Assembly (NCBI GenBank): GCA_017630405.1 | Contig: JAGBVH010000009.1 | Coordinates: 14,149-78,148, forward strand | From: Alphaproteobacteria bacterium | GTDB lineage: Bacteria; Pseudomonadota; Alphaproteobacteria; Rs-D84 | Reading direction: 5' to 3' | DNA: 64,000 nt | Shown: piece by piece, positions 8,309 through 46,279 of the stretch | Layout: every line of letters begins with the position of its first letter | Numbering within the stretch: position 1 is the stretch's first letter | Position numbers and translations under genes: made by a program | The notes under the pieces: model-generated | Databases searched by the model: none | What the model was told of the DNA's origin: nothing | The model's input: only the letters and a program-made list of their open reading frames with translations

Positions 8309-9586
8309 ATGAGAATTGAAAATTTATGCGTAAAACGCCTGATTGGGGAAGCCGCTGGCGCAACAACACACGGACACAAAATCGCGTTAAAAGGTGGATA
8401 CATTTATCAAACTTTCCAAGGTGGATATACATTGTCACCTTTGGGATGGCGCGTTGTCCGAAACATCGAAAATATCATTCGTCAGGAAATGGATGCCATT
8501 GACGGTCAGGAAATATTGATGCCTGTTGTATCTGGGGCAGACATTTGGCGCGAAAGTGGTCGCTATGACACAGTGGATGTGTTGGCAAAATTTAAGGGCC
8601 GTTCGGGTACGGACTATGTATTGAACCCAACACACGAAGAAGTTGTTGTGGACTTTGTTAAATCTGTTCTGGAAACATATCGCCAGATGCCATTTATGGT
8701 TTATCAAATCCAGACCAAGTTCCGCGATGAATTGCGCGCACGCGCCGGTCTTATTCGTACACGCGAATTTATTATGAAAGACGCTTATTCTTTCCATGAA
8801 ACATACGAAGATTTGGAAACGTACTATAACCGCTGTCTGGAAGCATATAAAACAATCTTTGCGCGTTGCGGTATGAAAAATGTTGTACACGTGCTGTCTT
8901 CGACTGGCGATATGGGTGGCAGTGTTGCTCACGAATTCCAACTGATTAACGATATGGGCGAAGACACAATTTACCTGTGCGATTGCGGATTTAACACAAA
9001 CAAAGAATTGATTGATGACGAAAGCGAAACTTGCCCAAAGTGCGGTGCAAAAATGCACAAGGTTCGCGGTATTGAAATTGGTAATATTTTCCAGTTGGGC
9101 ACAAAATATTCTGATTCAATGAATCTGACATATACTGCACCAGACGGCGAAAGCAAACATCCAATCATGGGTTGTTATGGCATCGGCGTTGGTCGCACAA
9201 TGGCTGCAATCTTGGAAGAAAGCGCGGACGAAAAAGGCCCAATCTGGAACATGGAAACTGCACCTTTTGCGGTCGAAGTTATCGGATTGTCTGACAAAGA
9301 AGGCAAGACCTTGCCTATGGCGGAAAAAATCTATACCGATTTGAAAGCCGCAGGTATTGAAGTCATTTTGGACAATCGCGATGCGCGTGCGGGCGAAAAG
9401 TTTGCGGATGCAGACTTGGTCGCTGCGCCAATTCGACTGATTGTATCGGCCAAGAATTTGGCGAATAATGCAATCGAAGTTAAATATCGTGTTAATGATA
9501 AAGACACAACAAATATGCCAACCTCATTTGGTTTGGAAACATATTTGGCGGATACACAAAATGCGATTTCTGAATTGTTAAAATAA
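8309..9586 (+). CDS. proS: Proline--tRNA ligase, short form without the INS editing domain
   Basis: PTHEE, QTKFRDE, REFIMKDAYSF, GIEIGNIFQLG, MGCYGIGVGR. Confidence 0.95.
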   Translation: MRIENLCVKRLIGEAAGATTHGHKIALKGGYIYQTFQGGYTLSPLGWRVVRNIENIIRQEMDAIDGQEILMPVVSGADIWRESGRYDTVDVLAKFKGRSGTDYVLNPTHEEVVVDFVKSVLETYRQMPFMVYQIQTKFRDELRARAGLIRTREFIMKDAYSFHETYEDLETYYNRCLEAYKTIFARCGMKNVVHVLSSTGDMGGSVAHEFQLINDMGEDTIYLCDCGFNTNKELIDDESETCPKCGAKMHKVRGIEIGNIFQLGTKYSDSMNLTYTAPDGESKHPIMGCYGIGVGRTMAAILEESADEKGPIWNMETAPFAVEVIGLSDKEGKTLPMAEKIYTDLKAAGIEVILDNRDARAGEKFADADLVAAPIRLIVSAKNLANNAIEVKYRVNDKDTTNMPTSFGLETYLADTQNAISELLK

Positions 9587-9587
9587 A

Positions 9588-9612
9588 AGACTGGGCAAAA
9601 GCCCAGTTTTTT
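9588..9612. terminator. Intrinsic terminator between convergent genes
   Basis: GACTGGGC-aaaa-GCCCAGTT followed by a T-run. Confidence 0.75.
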
Positions 9613-10106
9613 TATCTCTGATTCATTTTTAGCGCGTATCTGGCCAGTTTTAATTTCTTTAATACTTCTTCATACTCATACATATTGCGTCCCATTTTAT
9701 ATTCGGGTGAATCTTTGCTGGGATATCCATCCTTGTAGGCGCTTATTAAAATATACGCTGCAAAAGCCTCGTTACTGTGTGCCTCGTCTGGATACAGGTC
9801 ATTTATAATGCCAGCACCCTTAACAATCTCTGATGCAAAATAAGCAGAATCCTGAATCAGTTTTGGCATTTCCGACTTAATATCATTGATATCGCGTCTG
9901 CAGGCGCGCCGAAGCTGATATTCCCTGATATCATGAAACGAGCAATTATTACAATAACGCAATAAAAAGTTTGAAAAATCGCGAGCACGAACACTAGCAC
10001 GCGCGGCTGTTTCAGTTTCTTTTGAAGTCTGTGCGCCAGCACTCACCATCGGCATTGATAATGCCAACGCGCATAAAAGTGCTAAAAATCCCTTTTTACG
10101 TTCCAT
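9612..10106 (-). CDS. Hypothetical exported protein
   Basis: Sec-type signal peptide, CxxC, C-terminus KMNQR. Confidence 0.75.
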   Translation of the reverse strand: MERKKGFLALLCALALSMPMVSAGAQTSKETETAARASVRARDFSNFLLRYCNNCSFHDIREYQLRRACRRDINDIKSEMPKLIQDSAYFASEIVKGAGIINDLYPDEAHSNEAFAAYILISAYKDGYPSKDSPEYKMGRNMYEYEEVLKKLKLARYALKMNQR

Positions 10107-10112
10107 TTTTCC

Positions 10113-10442
10113 CTATTGATGTGACATCAGGTGCAAAACCAAACTGATAATAAACAACACCGTAATAACGCATAAAATGACTTTCTGGGTGCGATGCGAG
10201 TTTTTACCACCACAACTTTCGCAATCACAGCCACAGTCGCGGCCAATCAAGTACCACGACGACAACAGCATCAGGCCAGAAAACACAAACAACCATGGTT
10301 CCAGCCAATGAGGCAGCAGATGAAAATGAGCCGCATCCGGCGCAACCAGCCCCACAATCGCCAAAAGCATAGGCAACCCACAACAAAATATATGTGGAAC
10401 AATAGATGCAATTATACCGATTTTAACCGCTTTATTTTTCAT
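10113..10442 (-). CDS. Small Cys/His-containing membrane protein (MerC/MerT-like)
   Basis: Three TM helices, HIFCCGLP in TM1, CGCDCESC loop. Confidence 0.6.
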   Translation of the reverse strand: MKNKAVKIGIIASIVPHIFCCGLPMLLAIVGLVAPDAAHFHLLPHWLEPWLFVFSGLMLLSSWYLIGRDCGCDCESCGGKNSHRTQKVILCVITVLFIISLVLHLMSHQ

Positions 10443-10519
10443 ATTTCCCTCTTTTGTGGGGGCATATTATACCGCTTTTTTTCATATTGTAAACAACAAA
10501 AGCGAAGTGCAAAATCTTA

Positions 10520-10547
10520 TTGACAATATTTTTATTTGTGTTAATAT
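10520..10547 (+). promoter_or_regulatory. sigma70-type promoter, probably giving a leaderless transcript
   Basis: TTGACA-16 nt-TAATAT with upstream TG, 7 nt before ATG 10555; no SD. Confidence 0.55.
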
Positions 10548-10554
10548 CTTGACC

Positions 10555-11481
10555 ATGTTAGATTCAATCAAGACATATTTAGCATTAAAAGACGGCCCAA
10601 ATATCAGCTGCGCATACAGCTGGAATTCGCCAGTTTTTCTGTTTTCAAATGAAAACATTCAGCCATATTTGGCCAACCTGACAGATATGACAGGCAAAAA
10701 GGTGCTGACCGTTGCGGCAGCAGGTGACCATGCATTTGAAGCACTGTTGGCTGGGGCAAAACATGTGGATACATTTGATATAAACTATCTGCAAAAGCAT
10801 ATTATGGAACTAAAGTCAAAAATGATTAAGCACCTGCCCTATGGTGAATTTATGAAGTTCTTTTTTGACAAGAATCACTTCTTTGACAGAAGCATTATCA
10901 AGCCTATATGGAAAACATTCTCGCGCGAGTTGCGTATATTCTTGCTGATGTATTATCATCATCACCAGCACAACAGTCGCCTATTCAGATATAATGGTGC
11001 ACAACACAATGAATATATGCCTGACATGATTTCATATGTATCGGACGAATTGGCATTTAAAGAACTGAAGCAAATTATGCCCGACAAAATCAGTTTCAAA
11101 GAAACAAATGTACTGGAACTTTCAACCAAGTTTGATACAGAATACGATGTTATTTTAATGTCCAATATATTTGAATATCTGTACACAGATACAACCGATA
11201 TTGCTTCAAGACTTAAGGTCTTTCACGCAAATGTATTGACCCCAATCGCCGAAAATATCCTGTCCAAGGACGGTGGCAAGGCTTGTTTCCATTACAGCTG
11301 GAATACTAATGTAGAATTGTGGAACCAAGGCCTTAAAAGTTTTGAACGACACACGCAGTATTCCATCGACAATTTTAACGAAACCAAGTACTCGTTTGAT
11401 GCTATTGGTGTGAAATCTATTTGTTCGCTGGCACCAAACGGACAAGACGCGATGCTATATATGACCCAGAACCAAAGATAA
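10555..11481 (+). CDS. DUF3419/BtaA-like SAM-dependent transferase, paralog 1
   Basis: FLFSNEN, VLTVAAAGDH, GAKHVDTFDIN, YDVILMSNI. Confidence 0.75.
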   Translation: MLDSIKTYLALKDGPNISCAYSWNSPVFLFSNENIQPYLANLTDMTGKKVLTVAAAGDHAFEALLAGAKHVDTFDINYLQKHIMELKSKMIKHLPYGEFMKFFFDKNHFFDRSIIKPIWKTFSRELRIFLLMYYHHHQHNSRLFRYNGAQHNEYMPDMISYVSDELAFKELKQIMPDKISFKETNVLELSTKFDTEYDVILMSNIFEYLYTDTTDIASRLKVFHANVLTPIAENILSKDGGKACFHYSWNTNVELWNQGLKSFERHTQYSIDNFNETKYSFDAIGVKSICSLAPNGQDAMLYMTQNQR

Positions 11482-11485
11482 AAAT

Positions 11486-12400
11486 ATGTTTACAAAACTG
11501 CCTGATTTTAATAAAGAAACGGTTTGTTCCAGTGACGGTTATCACAAGGAACTGCCTGCGTTTTTGTTCAGCAACGAAAATGTCGCAGGATATATCAGTC
11601 AGTTTGACATGAAAGGAAAAACAGTTTTGACCGTTGGCGCATCGGGCGATCATTTGTTCGAGTGTTATGCACATGGGGCAAAGCACGTGGATACATTCGA
11701 TATAAACTATCGCCAAAAACCAATTATGGAACTAAAAAATCTTATGATTCAGCATGTACCATATGAAGATTTTCTGGAATTCTTTTTTGATGACGCAAAC
11801 TTTTTCAATCCACAGATAATCGAACCAATTATACCAATGTTTTCGATGTCGTTGCGTATGTTTATGGACCTTTATTACAGTATGGGCAGCGCCGGTCGCA
11901 AACTCTTCGTATATAACGGCAAATCTAATTTTTTGGCACAGTACGACAACAAATATTATTCCAATCAATTTAAATATGATGCGTTGGGTATAGAACTGCC
12001 AAAAAAGATTAGTTTTACACACACAGATATCACAGGCATCAGTGCGCACTTTACACGCAAATACGACTATATCTTTCTGTCGAATATTTTTGATTTCCAG
12101 CATCACGAAATCACCGACAGTTATCAGGCGTTGGAGCATTTTTATCATCATACAATTTTGCCACTGGCTGCAAATAATCTAGCAACAGAAAACGGTACAA
12201 TTGTAATGGAATATCTGTGGGGAAACAGTGCATCAACACGCGGCGGCATGTGGAACGCCTGGGAAGAATTTTCCGACAAGCACAACAACAAAACCCACGC
12301 CACAGGTATACAAATGCGCAACATGTTTCTTAAGGCAATGCTAAGCCTTACGAATCGCGACAATGTTCTTTATATGACACAAAACATCAAGACAAAGTAA
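11486..12400 (+). CDS. DUF3419/BtaA-like SAM-dependent transferase, paralog 2
   Basis: FLFSNEN, VLTVGASGDH, GAKHVDTFDIN, YDYIFLSNI. Confidence 0.75.
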   Translation: MFTKLPDFNKETVCSSDGYHKELPAFLFSNENVAGYISQFDMKGKTVLTVGASGDHLFECYAHGAKHVDTFDINYRQKPIMELKNLMIQHVPYEDFLEFFFDDANFFNPQIIEPIIPMFSMSLRMFMDLYYSMGSAGRKLFVYNGKSNFLAQYDNKYYSNQFKYDALGIELPKKISFTHTDITGISAHFTRKYDYIFLSNIFDFQHHEITDSYQALEHFYHHTILPLAANNLATENGTIVMEYLWGNSASTRGGMWNAWEEFSDKHNNKTHATGIQMRNMFLKAMLSLTNRDNVLYMTQNIKTK

Positions 12401-12401
12401 C

Positions 12402-13271
12402 ATGACCAAGCAACCAGAAACTTTTATCGAACCAACATACGCGTTTCAGGACAAAGGTGCTGTGTATCTGTTTACCAATGAAAATATTTCTGGGTACATT
12501 GACAGGTCTGGCGATATTTCTGGGGCAAATATTTTGACCGTTGGCGCATCGGGCGACCATGCGTTTGAATCGTATCTGATGGGCGCAAAACATGTGGATA
12601 CATTTGATATAAATTCATGGCAGAAAAATGTTATCGAACTTAAAACACATATGATTCATCATTTGAAATATTCTGACTTTATGGATTTCTTTTTCGAAAA
12701 ACAAAACTTCTTTGGCACAAAAATAATAGAACCATTAAAGCCGCTATTTTCTGACGACTTAAAAACTTTTGTTTCATCATACAACACCAATAACAAACAG
12801 ATGTTTAAATATCTGGGGCCATGCGCACCTGATTTTATCATAGATCGCCTTAGATACATCAACAGCGAACAAAACTATGAAGCGTTGCGTAATGTGTTGC
12901 CGGACAAAATCGAGTTCAGACACTGCAATATTACACATATAGCCAACTATATGGACAAAGAATACAAGTTGGTTATGCTGTCCAACATATTTGAATATAT
13001 GTACAGATTTTTAAGCACCAACGACAGACGCGTCAATGAATTCAGCAACAACATCCTTGACAATATTGAAGAACATATAACACAGGATGGTCGCATATAT
13101 TTTCACTATGCGTGGGGTAGCAACGCGGCATCTTGGAACAATTTTCTGGCGTTTACGCAACAGCGTTTTAATCTGCCCAAGAACTTGACAGCAATCAGCA
13201 TACCATCGGCATTTAAAAACAATAAAACCGATGCTGTGATATACGCATTTAAAAGCCAGAATATTAAATAA
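12402..13271 (+). CDS. DUF3419/BtaA-like SAM-dependent transferase, paralog 3
   Basis: YLFTNEN, ILTVGASGDH, GAKHVDTFDIN, YKLVMLSNI. Confidence 0.75.
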   Translation: MTKQPETFIEPTYAFQDKGAVYLFTNENISGYIDRSGDISGANILTVGASGDHAFESYLMGAKHVDTFDINSWQKNVIELKTHMIHHLKYSDFMDFFFEKQNFFGTKIIEPLKPLFSDDLKTFVSSYNTNNKQMFKYLGPCAPDFIIDRLRYINSEQNYEALRNVLPDKIEFRHCNITHIANYMDKEYKLVMLSNIFEYMYRFLSTNDRRVNEFSNNILDNIEEHITQDGRIYFHYAWGSNAASWNNFLAFTQQRFNLPKNLTAISIPSAFKNNKTDAVIYAFKSQNIK

Positions 13272-13281
13272 TACTATAAGT

Positions 13282-13470
13282 CTGTATGGACTGGCATCCC
13301 CAGCAGGACTGTCTGATTCCCATATTCGCTTTCGCTCTATGGGCCCCTTTCGCTACGTAGGGTTCAAACTTCGTTTACACTCGTTTTCACCAACTGACGC
13401 CCCGAACCTGGCGCAACTTTGTTGCTTAATCGGTTCTCGCCCTGTGTGGACTGGCGTCCCCAGCAGGACT
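13282..13470 (-). repeat. tRNA-linked direct repeat: 29-bp copies (last 19 nt of tRNA-Arg plus 10 nt of trailer) with a 160-bp period
   Basis: ctgtatggactggcatccccagcaggact (13282-13310) versus ctgtgtggactggcgtccccagcaggact (13442-13470), 2 mismatches. Confidence 0.9.
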
Positions 13471-13527
13471 CGAACCTGCATCTAATTCTTAGGAGGAATT
13501 TGTTCTATCCTGTTGAACTATGGGGAC
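13452..13527 (-). tRNA. tRNA-Arg(CCT)
   Basis: Cloverleaf GTCCCCA...AATTC-CTCCTAA-GAATT...GGTTCGAGTCC...TGGGGACG-CCA. Confidence 0.97.
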
Positions 13528-13632
13528 AAGACTGCGATATTCTAAAGCATTTTTGCCATTTTTTCAATACTTTTATGCATCACACGGTTGACAAACCGCG
13601 CGTTTGTGTTATATTTATATGAACAAGAGGTT

Positions 13633-15447
13633 ATGTCAATGGCAAGAACAAAGACAAAATATAGTGCGACTTTTATAAAGAACGAAGAAACCATAGTGAC
13701 AGATGTCATTATGACGGCTTTGCCGTATGGCGAATTTGGCCCCCAAAACCCATTGCTTATAATAGACAATGTGGATATGGGAAAAGGTAAAAAGACCCCG
13801 CTGCCGGATTTTTCACATGTTATTATTGATGGGACATTTGACTGTTCGGACTATACCATAAACGAAACAAGCGTTCTGCCAACTGGTATTACAGAATTAA
13901 TATGTTTATATTCTATCAACAGTTTGTCCGCTTTGATTGGCAAATTACCACAAAGCGTTATGCAGGTGACTGTGCGCCCCGCTATATTGAACGCGATTAA
14001 AAAGAACCTTGACGAACACAAGGAAGTCGTTAACCAATTTATTGAACAATATCCCGATGTCATCACCACCGATGGTAAGCAAACTTTGACAGAAATTTTA
14101 ATGCTTAACGAACTGTCCAAGCCCGCACAAAAAACAACAACTATGGCAGAACAGCAAACAAACAAGCCAACCACACCAATCAAAACAAGCGATTGGTTAT
14201 CGACAGACGAGGTTATTAATATATGCACAGATTTGTCGGAAGAGCTGGCCGCACTGACACAGCAAGAATTGACACGTTATGTACAAATGGCACGTTCATC
14301 TAAATCAAACCTTAATCTTAGATGCCAGAAAATGCTGCGCGATGACGGTGTTGAGATTACCTGTATTCACAACAACGAAATAAGCAAAGTAATCGATTTT
14401 ATTAGCGCTAAAGTCGCAGAAGCACAAGAACAAAAAATCGAAAAACCAAAAGAAAAAAAGATAGAAAAAGAACAACCTAAACAAACCAACATTCCAGAAA
14501 AGACTCAGCCTGCGACACAGGAATTACAGGTAATCAAAATCAATAAATTTATTACTAAGGCTGCATGGAAAAAAATACGCGCAAAATGGAAAAACAATGT
14601 TGGTGCAATGTTAAGTGCACTTAGGGACATAGAAGTCATCAATGTAAACCCGACCGATACACAGGGCGGAAAAGTTCAATATGTTGAAGACGGGGTGATT
14701 AAAACATCTGCAAATATCGTATTAAAAAACAGCAACTATCTGGCACAAGAATTCGGCATACTGGACAATAACAATGCACGAATCATATGGACAATATATG
14801 GTAATACTTTTGTTTGTCAGCACTTCTTAAAAACGCATATGGATCCGAAAAGCAATTCTAAATATAAACAGATAATAAGAAGCAAACCCGTCGAACTATC
14901 GGATCAAGAATACGCAAAACTTCTTAGCGTGACTGAACTTATCAAAGAGTTAGAAGACGGTCGTGGGGATGCAACCCCGCCTTTGGATGAACTTGATGAA
15001 GATAACGAAGACGACCACGACGATATCGATACAACAGAAGCGCCAAAGGAAACAAATGCATCAGTCGATGCAATGGTTGATATGGACGCCCAGAAAGCTA
15101 CTACAGAAGCCATCACGCCAGAAACGCCTGTGGTTGATATTACACCAGTAAAACCAACAACCGAAAAAGCAACAAAAAAAGCAAAAAATCCTGTCGCGCA
15201 ACAAAAAACATGGCAAGCGTTGTATTCTATGCACGCGGAATTTACCACAACAATTGAAAATATAGATCTGCGCCAGAAACAAATCGCAGCCGAATTGATG
15301 ATTACAGAAACAGAAACATCAATCAAACTGACCGAAGAGTTGCAACAGTTGTTGGCCAAGAAACTTGCATACGAAGAAGGATTGAAAAAATTCCGCGAGG
15401 CCGCAACATATATGCACGAAATCCAACAACAGTTCAAAACAAAATAA
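13633..15447 (+). CDS. Large hypothetical multidomain protein (central RelE-like segment, acidic linker, C-terminal coiled coil)
   Basis: Long ORF with GAGG SD, upstream TTGACA-16-TATATT and a downstream terminator. Confidence 0.8.
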   Translation: MSMARTKTKYSATFIKNEETIVTDVIMTALPYGEFGPQNPLLIIDNVDMGKGKKTPLPDFSHVIIDGTFDCSDYTINETSVLPTGITELICLYSINSLSALIGKLPQSVMQVTVRPAILNAIKKNLDEHKEVVNQFIEQYPDVITTDGKQTLTEILMLNELSKPAQKTTTMAEQQTNKPTTPIKTSDWLSTDEVINICTDLSEELAALTQQELTRYVQMARSSKSNLNLRCQKMLRDDGVEITCIHNNEISKVIDFISAKVAEAQEQKIEKPKEKKIEKEQPKQTNIPEKTQPATQELQVIKINKFITKAAWKKIRAKWKNNVGAMLSALRDIEVINVNPTDTQGGKVQYVEDGVIKTSANIVLKNSNYLAQEFGILDNNNARIIWTIYGNTFVCQHFLKTHMDPKSNSKYKQIIRSKPVELSDQEYAKLLSVTELIKELEDGRGDATPPLDELDEDNEDDHDDIDTTEAPKETNASVDAMVDMDAQKATTEAITPETPVVDITPVKPTTEKATKKAKNPVAQQKTWQALYSMHAEFTTTIENIDLRQKQIAAELMITETETSIKLTEELQQLLAKKLAYEEGLKKFREAATYMHEIQQQFKTK

Positions 15448-15548
15448 AAAGTGGGACAATCGTCCCATTTTTTATTTTATTTTGATATTGCAAGCCACCA
15501 ATTCGACCTGTATAATACCTTGGCAAAAAAGTAAGGAACTTATCAAAA

Positions 15549-16487
15549 ATGGGAAACAGACTGATTGGGTACGGCTCTTATCTGCCGGAACGCGTGATGA
15601 CCAATCAAGATTTTGAAAAAATTATGGACACTTCGGACGAGTGGATTGTTTCCCGCACCGGCATGCGCGAACGACACATGGCACGCGACGATGAAACCGT
15701 TGTCGACATGGCAGCAATTGCCGCACAGCGCGCGTTGGATAACGCAAAACTGACCATAGATGATATTGATTTAATCATTGTGGCAAATGTTAGCGCCGAA
15801 TTAGACTTTCCGTCCGTTGGGTGCCAAATTTTGGGCAAACTGGGCGCGACCAAAAACATACCTGCCTTTGATGTTCGTGGGGCATGTACAGGCTATATAT
15901 ACGCCCTGCACTGCGCACGCGCGTTCTTTACTGCCGGCATCCATAACCGCATTATGATTATCGGTGCGGAAAAGATGTCACGCTTTATCGACTGGTCCGA
16001 CCGCAGTACCGCTGTATTATTTGGCGATGGCGCAGGCGCGATGATATTCGAACATTCCACATCCAGTTATTCTGGCATAATCGATACAGTGATTATGAGC
16101 GATGGCAACGAATTTAATATGCTGCATGGCTCAACCGACCACAGAATAATTATGAACGGCCCAGAAACCTATAAAAAGGCCGTACAACTGATGCCAGATG
16201 CCGCACGATACATCATGAGCCATGCTGGCATCACTGCAGACAATGTGGACTGGATTATTCCACATCAGGCAAATTTGCGCATCATTCAAAGTTGCGCAGA
16301 AAAACTGGATTTTCCGATGGAGAAAATTCTGGTAACAGTAGATAAGCATGCAAATACCAGTGGTGCATCTGGTGTTTTAGCATTGTCTTATGCGTTTGAT
16401 AATGATATTATTAAACGTGGTCAATTAATTTTGTATCCCGCGTTCGGCAGTGGACTGACCTGGGGCGCGGCTTTAATTAGGGTGTAA
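15549..16487 (+). CDS. fabH: 3-oxoacyl-ACP synthase III
   Basis: DTSDEWI, GACTG, LFGDGAGA, PHQAN, HANTS, GSGLTWG. Confidence 0.96.
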   Translation: MGNRLIGYGSYLPERVMTNQDFEKIMDTSDEWIVSRTGMRERHMARDDETVVDMAAIAAQRALDNAKLTIDDIDLIIVANVSAELDFPSVGCQILGKLGATKNIPAFDVRGACTGYIYALHCARAFFTAGIHNRIMIIGAEKMSRFIDWSDRSTAVLFGDGAGAMIFEHSTSSYSGIIDTVIMSDGNEFNMLHGSTDHRIIMNGPETYKKAVQLMPDAARYIMSHAGITADNVDWIIPHQANLRIIQSCAEKLDFPMEKILVTVDKHANTSGASGVLALSYAFDNDIIKRGQLILYPAFGSGLTWGAALIRV

Positions 16488-41617: not shown

Positions 41618-42307
41618 GTGCAAAACCGCGTAGAACCGCCAATTTTACTATCTAGATTGCTGACATTTATCTTGGCTGTGTCGGTGGTTGTTTTGTTTAC
41701 TTTGGGCATGACATTGAAAAACATGTTCCCTTTGAACAGACCCCAGGTATTCTTTTTGACATCCCAATTGCGCGATAATATCGAGGCGAAAGTGACTGAA
41801 ATGCCCGCAACGGATGAAAATATGGACCGCTATGTTCGCGCCTTTATTCGCGAATACATCCGCGCAAGAAACGAAATCTTTCCAAACGCCAAAATTATGG
41901 AAAAAAAGTGGAGCGCGATGGAAGGACTGGTAAAGAACTGGTCAACAGATAATGTTTATAAAAAGTTTTCAAATACCGCGATGGTTAATGCAATCAGACG
42001 GCATGGTGCAATTAACCTTGATATTTCTTGTCAGGTGGAATATTTGGCAAATCAGCAGAATTCTTCGTCAATTCAATATCTGCAGAACGAAAAAATGTAT
42101 CAGATAAAATTTAGGTATCTTTGTACAAATAATGCTGGACCTTTGCCCCCAAAAGATTATACAATCACTTTGAAATTAGTATCTGGGGAACAGGAAACAA
42201 CCAGATGGAAGGATCGTGTTGAGAACCCACTGGGGCTGCGCGTGTCAGAATACAAAATAACCGCTGGCGGGATTGACCCATTGGACGGTTTTATGGCAAC
42301 TAAATAG
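41618..42307 (+). CDS. virB8: Type IV secretion VirB8-like protein
   Basis: N-terminal TM helix, FIREYIRAR helix, ENPLGLRVSEY motif. Confidence 0.85.
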   Translation: MQNRVEPPILLSRLLTFILAVSVVVLFTLGMTLKNMFPLNRPQVFFLTSQLRDNIEAKVTEMPATDENMDRYVRAFIREYIRARNEIFPNAKIMEKKWSAMEGLVKNWSTDNVYKKFSNTAMVNAIRRHGAINLDISCQVEYLANQQNSSSIQYLQNEKMYQIKFRYLCTNNAGPLPPKDYTITLKLVSGEQETTRWKDRVENPLGLRVSEYKITAGGIDPLDGFMATK

Positions 42308-42323
42308 AAACGGAAGGATTGGT

Positions 42324-43859
42324 ATGACAATGGTTAATTTATTTAAATTCAATGTATTGGTCGCATGTATGGCGACCGTCTTGGCAATTCCTGCATACGC
42401 TGAAGATACTGGCGCATATGGAATACAAGAGGCATGGGATAATCCAACCGCAAATATGGCCGCGGGCAGCATTAAGCCGGGATACGCACAGCTGTCTTGG
42501 TCCGAGGGTGCGGTTCTGCCAATCAAGTTACGCAACGGTATGCTGACTATGATTAACCTGCCAAATGGGGAAAAGATTGCTGATGCCCAGGTTGGTGACA
42601 CAAGTCAATTCGACATCAGCGCAACACAGGGCGAACGCACAATGTTCATATCCCCAAAATCTAACAACCAAGGCTCCGATACAAATATGATTGTTATGGG
42701 TGCATCTGGTAATAAATATATTTTCTATCTGCGCGCAGAACCATCTAACTCAAGCGAGATTACATATTCTCAGGTTGATATTATGCTGGATGGTAATGGC
42801 GCATTGCCTATGGCGATGGGTGGCAAAGCATCTGGTGGCGCATCTTCAATTTTCCAAAAGCCTGCAACAACATCAAATACAGTTGGTGTTGATGGCGAAG
42901 ATTATGGCTGGATAAAATCTATGAAGATCGATCCATCTGAATTCCGTTTTGATTTGGATATCTTTGTTCCAAATCCAGATGACTATGTAATCGCGCCCGA
43001 ACGCGTATGGCGCGACAGAATCTTTACATATATCGACTTTGGCGACAAAGTTATCGCAATGACACAAAGACCGGTTGTATCGCTGTTGGTCGAAGGTGGT
43101 GAATCCCCTGTTGGGTTCCGCACAGATGGCGAAGATGGCCGCTTGTTAATCGTAGAAGCGGTTGGCGATATGGTTCTGCGCAGCGGTCAACGCATTGTTT
43201 GTATCAAGAAACGCGAAAAACCATTCTTGATTGCTGATACTGCATCTGTGATGGCATTGGCCGAAGCAAATGTTGCACAAAGTATGCTGTCTGGTCAGTC
43301 GTTGAATAATATCGCATATACCGCGGATATGGCCGCGATGAGCATGGGCACAAATTATACTGCCACACCTATGTTTATGGGCAACACAGCAACTGTTAAC
43401 CCAGCAACAGGCGCGGGATATTATATGCCAGCGGGCTTTACTGCACCACAGGCGATGCCACAAAGCACAGGCGGCGTTGTAAACATGTTGCCAACTCAGC
43501 GCAATACTGCGGGCGCATATCTACCACAGACAAATATTCCATTGATTTCCAGCAACCAAACAGGTGTTGCGGTAGAATTGAAATCAGATACATCGGTCAA
43601 GGCACTGGAAGACTATTGGACAAGGCTGTTAGCAAAGTTTAGTGGCGATGATGGTCAGGGACTGTTGACACCATACGCAAATAAAGTTTTCTTTGCGGTT
43701 GACGAACAGGGTGTCGGCGATTTGGGCGCGGCTTCGTCTGCTGCACGCCAATACCGTTTGCGCATTGGGCCATTGGCTGATATTGATGCTGCACAAACAC
43801 TGTGCGACAAGTTGCTGAAATTTAACAGCACAAGTTGCAGTGTCGTCAGAATGCAATAA
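42324..43859 (+). CDS. virB9: Type IV secretion VirB9/TrbG-like protein with C-terminal SPOR-like domain
   Basis: Signal peptide, LPNGEKI..GD, TNMIV..KYIFYL, IAPERVWRDRIFTYIDF; tail YRLRIGPL..AQTLC..L..C. Confidence 0.85.
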   Translation: MTMVNLFKFNVLVACMATVLAIPAYAEDTGAYGIQEAWDNPTANMAAGSIKPGYAQLSWSEGAVLPIKLRNGMLTMINLPNGEKIADAQVGDTSQFDISATQGERTMFISPKSNNQGSDTNMIVMGASGNKYIFYLRAEPSNSSEITYSQVDIMLDGNGALPMAMGGKASGGASSIFQKPATTSNTVGVDGEDYGWIKSMKIDPSEFRFDLDIFVPNPDDYVIAPERVWRDRIFTYIDFGDKVIAMTQRPVVSLLVEGGESPVGFRTDGEDGRLLIVEAVGDMVLRSGQRIVCIKKREKPFLIADTASVMALAEANVAQSMLSGQSLNNIAYTADMAAMSMGTNYTATPMFMGNTATVNPATGAGYYMPAGFTAPQAMPQSTGGVVNMLPTQRNTAGAYLPQTNIPLISSNQTGVAVELKSDTSVKALEDYWTRLLAKFSGDDGQGLLTPYANKVFFAVDEQGVGDLGAASSAARQYRLRIGPLADIDAAQTLCDKLLKFNSTSCSVVRMQ

Positions 43860-43894
43860 TTTTCATAGATGTACTTAATTTGTGGGGTCAAGGG

Positions 43895-46279
43895 ATGAAA
43901 AAACTGAAGCAACAAATATCTGAATTGCTGAAAAATACACCCAAACATTTTCAATGGATTTTGTTAGGGATTGCCTTTGTTGTGGTGTTGATTCTGTTGA
44001 CCCTGCTGATTGGTGGCAACAAAGAAAAAACAAAAATAATTGATCCGGTTGAAAATGTGCCGGTGGACATTAAAATTACCCCAAGTATAATTAATTGGGC
44101 AGATACTCTGGTTGGCGACATCAGAGAACAACAGATTGCGGTTACTGCCAATTCGGCAATTAACATTAAATCTTTTAATGTACCAGTTTCTGTCCAAGGA
44201 TTGGATGTAACCAATACATGTGAAGCAGCAGGATTTATTGATACAGAATTAGATTGTTATATAAATTTAATATACGAGCCAACATATGAAATGGCGGCAA
44301 AAACTATACCGCTTGAATTGGAATGGTATTCCGCACAGGCAACCCCGGAAATGAGCGAAATATTCACAATCGAAGTGACGGTTGGTGCAATAGAGTCTGA
44401 ATTTAACGCCCAAAAACCAGTTGTCGTTCCAGAACCAGAGCCAGAGCCAGAACCGGAACCAGAACCGGAACCAGAACTGGAACCGGAACCGGAGCCGGAG
44501 CCAGAACCAGAACTGGAACCTGTAAAAAAGGCCGTTAACACTATTGCGGCAGGTGACCCTTTTGAAAAACCAAAACGCGAAGAAAAATATGCCGAACCTT
44601 GTTCCGAATTCGCATTTGCTGGATATAATCTGTCGGGCACACAAAGCGGCTGGATTAAACCAGAGGATGGCGCATATTATTTCCATCCTTTTTCCGATAC
44701 GGATTGCAGCGATCCAACCGGTATCTATAATCCAGATTCTGGTTTGATTATGGACATTGATAATCGTGGCCGAAAAATCGGTACAGATGCTGAACATATT
44801 GGTTATGTTGCGATATCTGGTGGACGACCACCAGAATTGTCGAACAAACCAGCAGTAAGACCCGTTAATCGCGCACGTCAAAACACCGCACCACGCGAAA
44901 GTGGTGGCAGCAGTTTTGCGGATATAAATAACAACGGAATCATAGTACAACCCGCCAAGGAAACAGATGTTACATACGGCACAACTGGCACCGCGGTTGT
45001 TTCAACCCAGCCATATGACCGCTCGTTTATCTTGCGCCAGTTCAAGCCAATTCCTGCAACAATTGTTTCGGATGTTCGTGCGGATATAAAACTGTTACAA
45101 AGTGAAGGTTCTTTGCCGGTACGCGCGACCGTTGACCGAAATGTCTATGCCGATAATGGTCGCACCGTTATTTTGCCAGCGGGAACATTGATGATGGGAT
45201 ATGTGACCGGTGAAATCCCAGGACCATACAAGGCCATCGGTCGTATGGAAATTAAATGGTATCAGTTTATTCTACCAAATGGTGTTGAATTTAATTTTGC
45301 CGGCGGCGAAGATCCATTCTCGGCCGATGCACAGGGTCGCGTTGGTGTCCCAGGTCGCGGCAGCACCGATTATCTGGAACAGTTCTTTATGCCAATGGTG
45401 ACCGCGTTTGTTCCAGCGGCAATTAACCTGATTAATCCTGTTGCGGATGCGTTTGTGAATCAGATTGATTTAGACAGCAATACAGTTGTTCAAAGCGGAA
45501 CTATGCGTTCATCCGAATTGGCCAAGAATGAAATCATTACAGCTTGGAATCAAGTGGCACAAAAGTTGATGGTTGATATGCTGGATAATACCGTTCCGCC
45601 ATTTACAATTGCCGCAGGTACACGTATTACGGTATATTCGCCTGTTGATTTACAGGTCGCCTGTACAACTAATGACAAGTGCAAATTCGAGGAAAGAGAT
45701 AATAGCAATGCAACCCAACGAAAAACACGTCGTGATTGGGGCAAGGACGGAGATGTTAATAACATGGGGGCTACACCGGCAAATGATGGTTCTTGGATTG
45801 GTCAAACACGCAGTTTCCAAGCTGACCAATATTGTGAACTAGACGACGGTGGTCTATATCGTGTAAAACCAGAATGTTCCGGTGCAGGGACAGGTGAATT
45901 AAACTCATGCGGGGGATATTCGTATGCGACATTGAAACTGTGGTGCGATTCTTTGAATTATCAATCCAAAAAGGCATTGCAGTATGAAGCATATAAAGCA
46001 GATCAAAGCGCACAATATCAACAAAAGATAGAAGATTTGGGCGGAATAGGCAGCCAACAGTACAATGAAGAAATTCTGGGGGTAAAATACGATGCCGAAG
46101 GTCATGTTATGAATCCATATGAATCCGCACCAAAGGCCGAAGCGGGTCTGACATGTGAAGACGGCACTCCACCAGATCAATATGGATGCTGTACCGGTGA
46201 AATATACACCGATATGGGCGAAGATGGGTTTAACTGTTGTCCAGAAACCGGGGGCGACTGTTTCCCACCACTGATATAA
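43895..46279 (+). CDS. virB10: Type IV secretion VirB10/TrbI-like protein with extra domains
   Basis: TM anchor, Pro-rich linker, IPATI..VRATVDRNVYADNGRTVILPAGT, ADAQGRVGVPG, PPFTIAAGTRITV. Confidence 0.88.
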   Translation: MKKLKQQISELLKNTPKHFQWILLGIAFVVVLILLTLLIGGNKEKTKIIDPVENVPVDIKITPSIINWADTLVGDIREQQIAVTANSAINIKSFNVPVSVQGLDVTNTCEAAGFIDTELDCYINLIYEPTYEMAAKTIPLELEWYSAQATPEMSEIFTIEVTVGAIESEFNAQKPVVVPEPEPEPEPEPEPEPELEPEPEPEPEPELEPVKKAVNTIAAGDPFEKPKREEKYAEPCSEFAFAGYNLSGTQSGWIKPEDGAYYFHPFSDTDCSDPTGIYNPDSGLIMDIDNRGRKIGTDAEHIGYVAISGGRPPELSNKPAVRPVNRARQNTAPRESGGSSFADINNNGIIVQPAKETDVTYGTTGTAVVSTQPYDRSFILRQFKPIPATIVSDVRADIKLLQSEGSLPVRATVDRNVYADNGRTVILPAGTLMMGYVTGEIPGPYKAIGRMEIKWYQFILPNGVEFNFAGGEDPFSADAQGRVGVPGRGSTDYLEQFFMPMVTAFVPAAINLINPVADAFVNQIDLDSNTVVQSGTMRSSELAKNEIITAWNQVAQKLMVDMLDNTVPPFTIAAGTRITVYSPVDLQVACTTNDKCKFEERDNSNATQRKTRRDWGKDGDVNNMGATPANDGSWIGQTRSFQADQYCELDDGGLYRVKPECSGAGTGELNSCGGYSYATLKLWCDSLNYQSKKALQYEAYKADQSAQYQQKIEDLGGIGSQQYNEEILGVKYDAEGHVMNPYESAPKAEAGLTCEDGTPPDQYGCCTGEIYTDMGEDGFNCCPETGGDCFPPLI
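44429..44521 (+). repeat. Coding hexanucleotide repeat, (Pro-Glu)n linker of VirB10
   Basis: About 15 degenerate CCRGAR units. Confidence 0.9.

Follow-up and report, generated by a model that had tools for sequence, protein, structure and literature searches.

Do five neighbouring proteins with similar C-termini carry one common secretion signal? The question is raised by a short stretch between proS and fabH in an alphaproteobacterial genome of the order Rs-D84 (GenBank assembly GCA_017630405.1, contig JAGBVH010000009.1). The window analysed here is the whole 64,000-nucleotide stretch of DNA around this locus (G000:C4:14149-78148, where G000 is the genome itself: 1.05 Mb, 30 contigs, ~43% G+C). 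Candidatus Enterousia is placed in the same reduced-genome order in the text of PMC12306168. The initial annotation read the five tails as signals for a type IV secretion system (T4SS) and their genes as an effector islet. Re-reading of the open reading frames (ORFs) found the tails exactly where they had been reported:

9612..10106, minus strand: 164-aa gene, tail ..LKMNQR
10456..11481, plus strand: DUF3419-like paralog 1, tail YMTQNQR (Pfam PF11899, 48 bits)
11486..12400, plus strand: DUF3419-like paralog 2, tail YMTQNIKTK (Pfam PF11899, 32.6 bits)
12402..13271, plus strand: DUF3419-like paralog 3, tail FKSQNIK (Pfam PF11899, 47.6 bits)
13633..15447, plus strand: 604-aa gene, ATG start at 13633, tail ..IQQQFKTK

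The five similar tails are real but are probably not one device. Paralogy, an old family stub, a bias of protein ends towards basic residues and A-rich 3′ ends of genes would together account for most of their likeness. Two caveats attached to the original proposal also hold: three of the five proteins are paralogs, and the 164-aa protein has a putative Sec-type leader.

Descent and family traits in the five tails

The three paralogs, S-adenosylmethionine (SAM) enzymes by annotation, are 37–40% identical, and all exceed the gathering score of PF11899 (28.2). They are like the DUF3419/BtaA-like transferases of that family in Pfam score, predicted Rossmann SAM-binding fold and conserved motifs (VLTVxASGDH and VDTFDIN). 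They differ in that the profile aligns only over positions ~25–114 of 385, and a full-length match was not seen. BtaA is linked to betaine-lipid synthesis. The proteins here are ~290–305 aa long, and a DUF3419-like gene was found in 16/41 genomes. The AlphaFold2 model of paralog 3 (pLDDT 93.7, pTM 0.91, 61 aligned sequences) confidently predicts a class I SAM-dependent (Rossmann) transferase fold of the methyltransferase type. A Foldseek search with this model returned 305 PDB chains at E <= 0.001; the rows listed were all SAM-dependent transferase folds, headed by 6ulo, spermine synthase and methyltransferases.

The C-terminus of this family consists of the last beta strand (D-x-V-L-x-M/Y) followed by a basic stub of 4–6 residues. 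The paralog 3 model places this strand at residues 276–283, which leaves only the stub 284–289 (KSQNIK) free. Among near homologs, 110/119 end in Lys or Arg and 56/119 in -Gln-Lys/Arg (Q[KR]), the usual form being D-x-V-L-x-M-x-Q-x-Q-K/R. A profile search collected 3436 DUF3419-like representatives at E <= 0.001. Of 135 more distant ones, 78 have a Lys or Arg end, most often in the form ..DAVLVYKKxR, and a Q[KR] end was seen in just 4; homologs from metagenome-assembled genomes (MAGs) of Muribaculaceae and Bacilli (27–32% identity) end in YKKR, YKKTK or LQKKR. Since distant homologs share the basic ends, the basic stub is an old family trait, and its Gln flavour is particular to this lineage. 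Descent is the first cause of the likeness: three of the five tails are inherited among tandem DUF3419-like paralogs. Outside this lineage the family also occurs in fusions: several distant DUF3419-like domains (P0182, P0204, P0215, P0246 and P0251) make up the C-terminal part of 610–793-aa proteins.

The other two proteins have different histories. The 164-aa protein has a putative N-terminal Sec-type leader, MERKKGFLALLCALALSMPMVSAGA, with a hydrophobic score of 2.57 by a crude measure of N-terminal hydrophobicity; by the same score, the other four proteins have no leader-like N-terminus at their likely starts. Its C-terminus is helix-prone and ends in LKMNQR. No Pfam or NCBIfam family was matched, and its homologs occur in 3/61 genus genomes, with tails HNDNHK and EVNMK.

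Homologs of the 604-aa protein are more common (23/61 genus genomes), and 22 database relatives were found at 30–95% identity. The protein evolves fast, judging by the neighbouring FabH, which is 80–84% identical in the same loci. Its AlphaFold2 model (pLDDT 74.6) has an N-terminal module resembling leucine-rich repeats (LRRs), followed by two more folded modules and an acidic linker that is disordered (446–526), with a helical hairpin at the C-terminus. The last helix covers residues 560–603 of 604, so the tail is predicted to be helical. Structural matches to the hairpin (Z 9.6) are generic, and they filled a wide VIA-align search. In the family alignment (A1), 16/23 tails end in Lys or Arg and 1/23 in Q[KR]; the endings include FKTK, QQYK, GDYQM, KDKWR, VVQHG and DEFIH.

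The third module of the 604-aa protein (residues ~296–445; window positions 14518–14967) gave Foldseek matches to Cami1, YoeB, HigB and RelE at E 0.02–0.7, none at <= 0.001. Pfam searches at E <= 10 on four pieces of the protein and a search of the ESM Atlas gave nothing above their bars. Residues K365, Q372, R383, W386, H402 and Y411 are invariant in the family. It is possible that this module is an RNase-like domain within an LRR-headed protein.

Tail conservation accordingly divides the five: the tail is kept in the DUF3419-like family and changed in the other two families, whose tails, judging from the aligned relatives, are not kept in orthologs. A common secretion signal on all five is not supported: the tails of the SAM enzymes are a family trait, those of the 164-aa and 604-aa proteins vary, and a Q[KR] ending is found on only 2/5.

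Basic and A-rich gene ends

The tails were compared with those of the whole genome. A codon-usage ORF scorer of our own called 1018 genes, and C-termini are independent of its choice of start codon. Proteins with a tblastn match at E <= 1e-5 in G040, a genome of another family in the same order, were classed as core (n=501) and the rest as orphan (n=507). In the last seven residues of both classes Lys is enriched (2.14x and 2.42x), while Thr (0.63x) and Ala (0.67–0.84x) are depleted; 28% of proteins end in Lys. Weber et al. (2020; PMC7246954) describe the same preference for 1,582 bacterial genomes: at the last position, Lys is enriched 2.32x and Arg 1.76x, and Thr is depleted 2.25x. The last residues are reported there to alter protein level, probably via degradation.

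The genome studied here agrees with that universal bias, as described in PMC7246954, in the Lys enrichment and Thr depletion of both classes. It also agrees in that diverged families retain a basic residue at the last position (110/119 in the DUF3419-like family, and 27/31 in a second Q[KR] family, of whose members 8/31 end in Q[KR]). The universal bias accounts for the basic ends, and therefore secretion is not needed to explain them. A second cause of the five tails would be this general bacterial preference for C-terminal Lys/Arg; the bias itself is seen here, and the mechanism, a higher protein level through slowed degradation, is that proposed in PMC7246954.

For the full tail pattern, an excess over chance is seen in some tests only. 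The pattern [QN]x(0-3)(QR|TK|IK)-stop occurs in 12/1008 proteins, and 10.8 +/- 3.0 are expected when the columns of the last eight residues are shuffled; 776/2000 shuffles reached at least 12. Five of the 12 matches are this cluster, including the three paralogs. The pattern's local density is partly circular, since the five tails themselves served as its template. A looser feature, with two or more Gln/Asn in the last seven residues plus a Lys/Arg end, gave 6 adjacent positive gene pairs vs 2.2 expected, a value reached in 95/5000 permutations; without the cluster, 2 pairs were found vs 1.8 expected.

Base composition forms a further part. Over the final 6 nt ahead of stop codons, A content climbs to 0.45 in orphan and core genes alike, and codon use in the tails moves towards AAA, AGA, CAA and ACA. 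The terminal Arg of orphans is encoded by AGA in 24/51 cases vs 10% of Arg codons in gene bodies. At the DNA level the five tails are 40–57% A. A common DNA element at the five 3′ ends was sought and set aside: the only match was a 16-nt imperfect inverted one between the 164-aa gene and paralog 1, made of the NQR-stop codons plus an A run. Two of the genes run into terminators:

9590..9607, minus strand: terminator-like hairpin, beginning 4 nt past the stop codon of the 164-aa gene
15434..15485, plus strand: terminator, 24-nt inverted repeat with arms 92% complementary

The stop codons of the 164-aa and 604-aa genes lie 4–5 nt ahead of the hairpins, and the 604-aa gene has its stop and the four codons ahead of it (FKTK) within the A-rich left arm of the second terminator. 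A third cause is A-rich DNA ahead of stops.

Layout of the locus

The remaining features of the stretch are as follows:

8309-9586: proS, flanking the five-gene stretch on one side
10113..10442, minus strand: 109-aa membrane protein, a neighbour outside the five-protein set
10520-10547: promoter-like site upstream of the paralog 1 ATG at 10555 (promoter scan: TTGACA, 16 nt, TAATAT, with TG)
13282..13310: 29-nt direct repeat of the tRNA-Arg 3′ end, 27/29 identical, 10 nt past the stop of paralog 3
13452..13527, minus strand: tRNA-Arg(CCT), between a DUF3419-like gene and the 604-aa gene
13588-13615: promoter-like site of the 604-aa gene, 11/12 consensus matches
15549-16487: fabH, flanking the five-gene stretch on the other side

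From proS to fabH, the order is thus the 164-aa gene (minus), the 109-aa gene (minus), three tandem DUF3419-like genes, tRNA-Arg(CCT) (minus) and the 604-aa gene. Paralogs 2 and 3 are separated by 1 nt (stop to start). The promoter-like site of paralog 1 ends 8 nt upstream of ATG 10555, and alignments of homologs start near residue 22–58. The true start of paralog 1 is probably ATG 10555, the 341-aa reading from GTG 10456 being too long, and the position of the promoter-like site suggests that the mRNA leader is very short or absent.

The partner of the 29-nt repeat, at 13442-13470, comprises the tRNA-Arg 3′ end plus 10 nt beyond it. The two copies are 160 nt apart, and 0 such matches are expected by chance. 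The repeat resembles a scar left by integration or rearrangement at a tRNA hotspot. In related loci, tRNA-Arg(CCT) lies beside the 604-aa homolog in 12/12 loci checked; where a DUF3419-like gene is present, the tRNA-Arg 3′ end is often a few bases from its stop; and the DUF3419-like gene adjoins the 604-aa homolog in 9/19 loci of other genomes. Genes upstream of the DUF3419-like gene vary between genomes. Downstream of the 604-aa homolog, fabH and then an ihf/hup-like gene usually follow. The locus varies between genomes and lies on the 3′ side of tRNA-Arg(CCT), with DUF3419-like genes abutting the tRNA; on the opposite side stand the 604-aa gene, fabH and the ihf/hup-like gene.

Homologs of the 164-aa gene have a different gene context, away from this locus, in other genomes. 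Because they sit elsewhere, the five genes do not form a unit. The idea of an effector islet is not supported for the same reason, and also in view of the putative Sec-type leader of the 164-aa protein. The 164-aa gene would be an unlinked neighbour whose product is predicted to be Sec-exported.

The 109-aa membrane protein carries the Cys motifs CC and CGCDCESCGG and a weak MerT/MerTP likeness (26.9 bits vs a cut-off of 180). It is absent from the codon-usage gene call set.

The -Gln-Lys/Arg ending and the type IV secretion question

Not everything in the genome is covered by descent, general bias and A-rich ends. The initial annotation had proposed that the tail motif would be enriched in orphan proteins. 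In its exact form the motif is in 10/507 orphans vs 2/501 core proteins (p 0.04), and this enrichment does not outlast removal of the cluster (5/502, p 0.45). The idea stands in a simpler form: Q[KR]-stop is found in 23/507 orphans vs 2/501 core proteins (p 1.6e-5). This contrast and the results gathered in this and the next paragraph weigh against a wholly ordinary origin of the tails. The Q[KR] pattern was chosen after viewing the lists and was then tested unchanged in two further genomes, where the contrast repeats: 31/437 vs 5/498 in G074, of the same genus (p 1.2e-6), and 10/460 vs 1/500 in G040 (p 0.0045). Restricting the orphans to those with a G074 ortholog leaves the contrast in place (10/209 vs 2/451), and Q[KR] is kept in 5/10 G074 orthologs vs a 7% baseline. 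The looser feature behaves similarly: 36/507 orphans vs 12/501 core proteins (p 5e-4), with 24.0 +/- 4.0 expected in orphans by shuffling (7/2000 shuffles reach 36); 31/502 without the cluster (p 0.004); 33/450 vs 12/418 when counted by family (p 0.003); 18/261 vs 8/355 at >=200 aa; and 39/460 vs 16/500 in G040. Set against the composition of the protein bodies, 34 orphans were found vs 17.6 expected (z 4.3), and 12 core proteins vs 14.1. Gln has a tail/body ratio of 1.44 in orphans and 0.93 in core proteins; for Arg the ratios are 1.45 and 0.90.

Several simple sources of the Q[KR] ending were tried and rejected. A-rich synonymous codons do not lie behind the Gln at position -2 (CAA 14, CAG 11, no bias); the codon effect applies in part to the terminal Arg. 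Terminator A-tracts are not a general cause (terminator-like context 30% vs 31%), though they do apply to the 164-aa and 604-aa genes, nor is a close downstream gene on the same strand (43% vs 35%). Helix-prone segments do precede Q[KR] tails (p 9e-4 and 0.005), and yet helical C-termini are not a sufficient cause, as helix-like ends of conserved proteins have Q[KR] in 0/48 and 0/46 cases. No hidden homology among the 23 Q[KR] orphans was found by phmmer at E <= 0.1. In G147, a genome of the same class with the VirB10, VirD4 and VirB4 families unmatched, the first 400 kb of 1.107 Mb show no Q[KR] contrast (3/199 vs 2/131), the split there being between proteins shared or not with three genomes of the order, which is not equivalent to orphan and core. 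A fourth cause would be an additional habit, shown statistically and specific to the order, of lineage-specific proteins ending in -Gln-Lys/Arg; it may reflect an order-specific form of the effect on stability or expression rather than a secretion tag. Compared with the universal bias of PMC7246954, the difference is that the extra Gln at -2 is confined to lineage-specific proteins (23/507 vs 2/501); the word "glutamine" has 0 occurrences in the main text of that source, figures and supplements aside. The order-wide -Gln-Lys/Arg ending on lineage-specific proteins is a new, repeatable statistic. No such terminus turned up for this group in the literature consulted, in which no search was aimed at that question.

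Genes with this ending also occur in short runs. Small lineage-specific genes at G000 C2:21784-22370 and C12:123297-123933 end in GRQK, KEKQR, QKQK and QKQK; some of the 23 Q[KR] orphans are these small cassette genes, which occupy the intervals rimM–trmD and ileS–nth (nth being the endonuclease III gene). In G074, five consecutive genes at C6:31396-36116 (71, 91, 578, 355 and 202 aa) end in Q[KR], and the last of them (C6:35508-36116) is the ortholog of G000 C2:17359-17985. Three tandem genes at G074 C11:10900-12152 have the like ends QQKQR, QEKQR and QQKQR.

A secretion apparatus is present in this genome, and the T4SS core claimed for the window is borne out by Pfam matches:

41618..46279, plus strand: VirB8, VirB9 and VirB10 homologs (Pfam VirB8 46.6, CagX 85.8 and TrbI 58.1 bits)

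Other contigs encode members of the VirD4 family (119.8 bits; the homolog lies at G000 C12:92672-95038) and the VirB4 family (55.8 bits), and a VirB11-like ATPase (78.7 bits); TrbL/VirB6 had no match in the genome. The VirB9 homolog (42273-43859, 528 aa) has a weak SPOR-like C-terminal match (E 0.0018), and the VirB10 homolog (43835-46279, 814 aa) has a Pro-rich stretch near residues 183–239; both far exceed the length of their Pfam domains. VirB10 is found in 60/61 genus genomes, 60/61 order genomes and 57/151 class genomes, the class tally including one unpublished genome, G143, on which no conclusion depends. VirB10 being near-universal in the order, there is no T4SS-free comparison inside it, and co-occurrence of the islet with the T4SS is therefore uninformative. 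Whether the tails persist in genomes that lack a T4SS, a point on which the annotation would stand or fall, received a divided answer from five distant Bacilli/Muribaculaceae genomes with basic-tailed DUF3419-like homologs: VirB10 (0/5) and VirB4 (0/5) had no match, but the coupling-protein family was matched in 5/5, and therefore absence of every T4SS from these genomes cannot be claimed. An adjacency of the DUF3419-like gene and the coupling-protein gene, considered for two of the distant genomes, was discarded, as the contigs concerned differ in length.

In Agrobacterium, the signals of VirB/D4 substrates are positively charged and Arg-rich over ~20 unstructured C-terminal residues. The present proteins are like them in having a short basic end in a genome that encodes a VirD4 coupling protein. 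They differ in the form of the end, which here consists of six residues beyond a strand or of a helix terminus. An unstructured basic stretch of at least ~20 residues was not seen in the models, where the strand of paralog 3 is predicted to run to residue 283/289 and the helix of the 604-aa protein to 603/604. They also differ in that the lineage-specific proteins have no higher net tail charge: at least +3 in the last 10 residues is found in 79/507 orphans and 68/501 core proteins, with no difference. Over the last 20 residues, the net charge of the five proteins, counted by eye, is ~0 to +4.

The closest secretion precedent is the XVIPCD domain of X-Tfe effectors, the substrates of bacteria-killing VirB/D4-type T4SS. 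In the text of Oka et al. (PMC8740702), XVIPCD has ~120 residues and conserved motifs: a conserved region of ~90 residues, then a tail of mostly 26–42. The tail is Gln-rich, with Arg at -6 to -1 and no acidic residues there, and removing the final 20 residues from an XVIPCD effector abolishes killing (PMC8740702). The likeness lies in Gln-rich, Arg-bearing ends on VirB/D4-type substrates; the difference is that here the similar part covers only 3–7 residues and the domain is unmatched. XVIPCD (Pfam PF20410) gave 0 matches at E <= 1 genome-wide and none in the five proteins at E <= 0.01.

Could the -Gln-Lys/Arg (or KTK-like) end nevertheless be a tag for the VirB/D4 T4SS, with the DUF3419-like enzymes, and perhaps the 604-aa protein as well, among its translocated substrates? 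This is unlikely, although several observations favour it. VirB8/9/10, VirD4, VirB4 and a VirB11-like ATPase are encoded in the genome, with VirB10 in 60/61 order genomes; the Q[KR] excess is seen in three genomes and unseen in part of one T4SS-free genome; the ending is partly kept in orthologs (5/10); XVIPCD tails provide a precedent (PMC8740702); and an N-terminal hydrophobic segment is rarer among Q[KR] proteins (5/23 vs 161/484 and 8/31 vs 177/406, not significant in either comparison alone). However, only 2/5 tails of the cluster are Q[KR], one of the five proteins has a putative Sec leader, and N-termini resembling leaders are present in about a quarter of Q[KR] proteins. The DUF3419 stub comprises 6 residues beyond a strand and is basic in Bacilli/Muribaculaceae homologs too; Q[KR] tails follow helix-prone rather than disordered segments; XVIPCD is unmatched; and orphans are no richer in tails with a net charge of at least +3. 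The T4SS-free control is one partial genome with a non-equivalent partition, and Lys/Arg ends are universal in bacteria according to the main text of PMC7246954. A tag of this kind would imply 20–30 further lineage-specific substrates per genome, which is a doubtful prospect. It is similarly improbable that VirD4 reads so minimal a tag on a few dozen unrelated, mostly small lineage-specific proteins per genome.

The opposite explanation is that chance and paralogy suffice, with a pattern fitted afterwards and a Q[KR] contrast that is an artefact of gene calling or of the orphan definition. The pattern was indeed tailored to the data, its count agrees with tail composition, and there is no spatial clustering outside the locus; moreover, orphans are shorter (median 203 vs 292 aa), the gene caller is home-made, and Q[KR] was chosen post hoc. 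Against this, the fixed Q[KR] pattern held in two further genomes (p 1.2e-6 and 0.0045) and when only orphans with orthologs were counted (10/209 vs 2/451), the looser feature persists among proteins of >=200 aa (18/261 vs 8/355), and C-termini are unaffected by start-codon choice. Chance and paralogy alone are very unlikely to be the whole explanation. The reading that remains probable is the composite one, in which descent, a family stub, the general basic-end bias and A-rich 3′ ends produced five similar tails without a common device.

The five-gene signal is thus mostly ordinary, being made up of paralogy and the universal basic-end bias. What reaches beyond the locus is that lineage-specific proteins of this order carry a -Gln-Lys/Arg end about ten times as often as conserved proteins do. 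Were the tails a T4SS signal, an effector list could be drawn up from them for uncultured, widespread animal-gut bacteria; the -Gln-Lys/Arg tag would then be related to the Gln-rich, Arg-ended XVIPCD tails but much shorter, and the DUF3419-like enzymes and small cassette proteins between housekeeping genes would be injected effectors. The Q[KR] statistic bears either on secretion or on C-terminal tuning of protein stability in reduced genomes.

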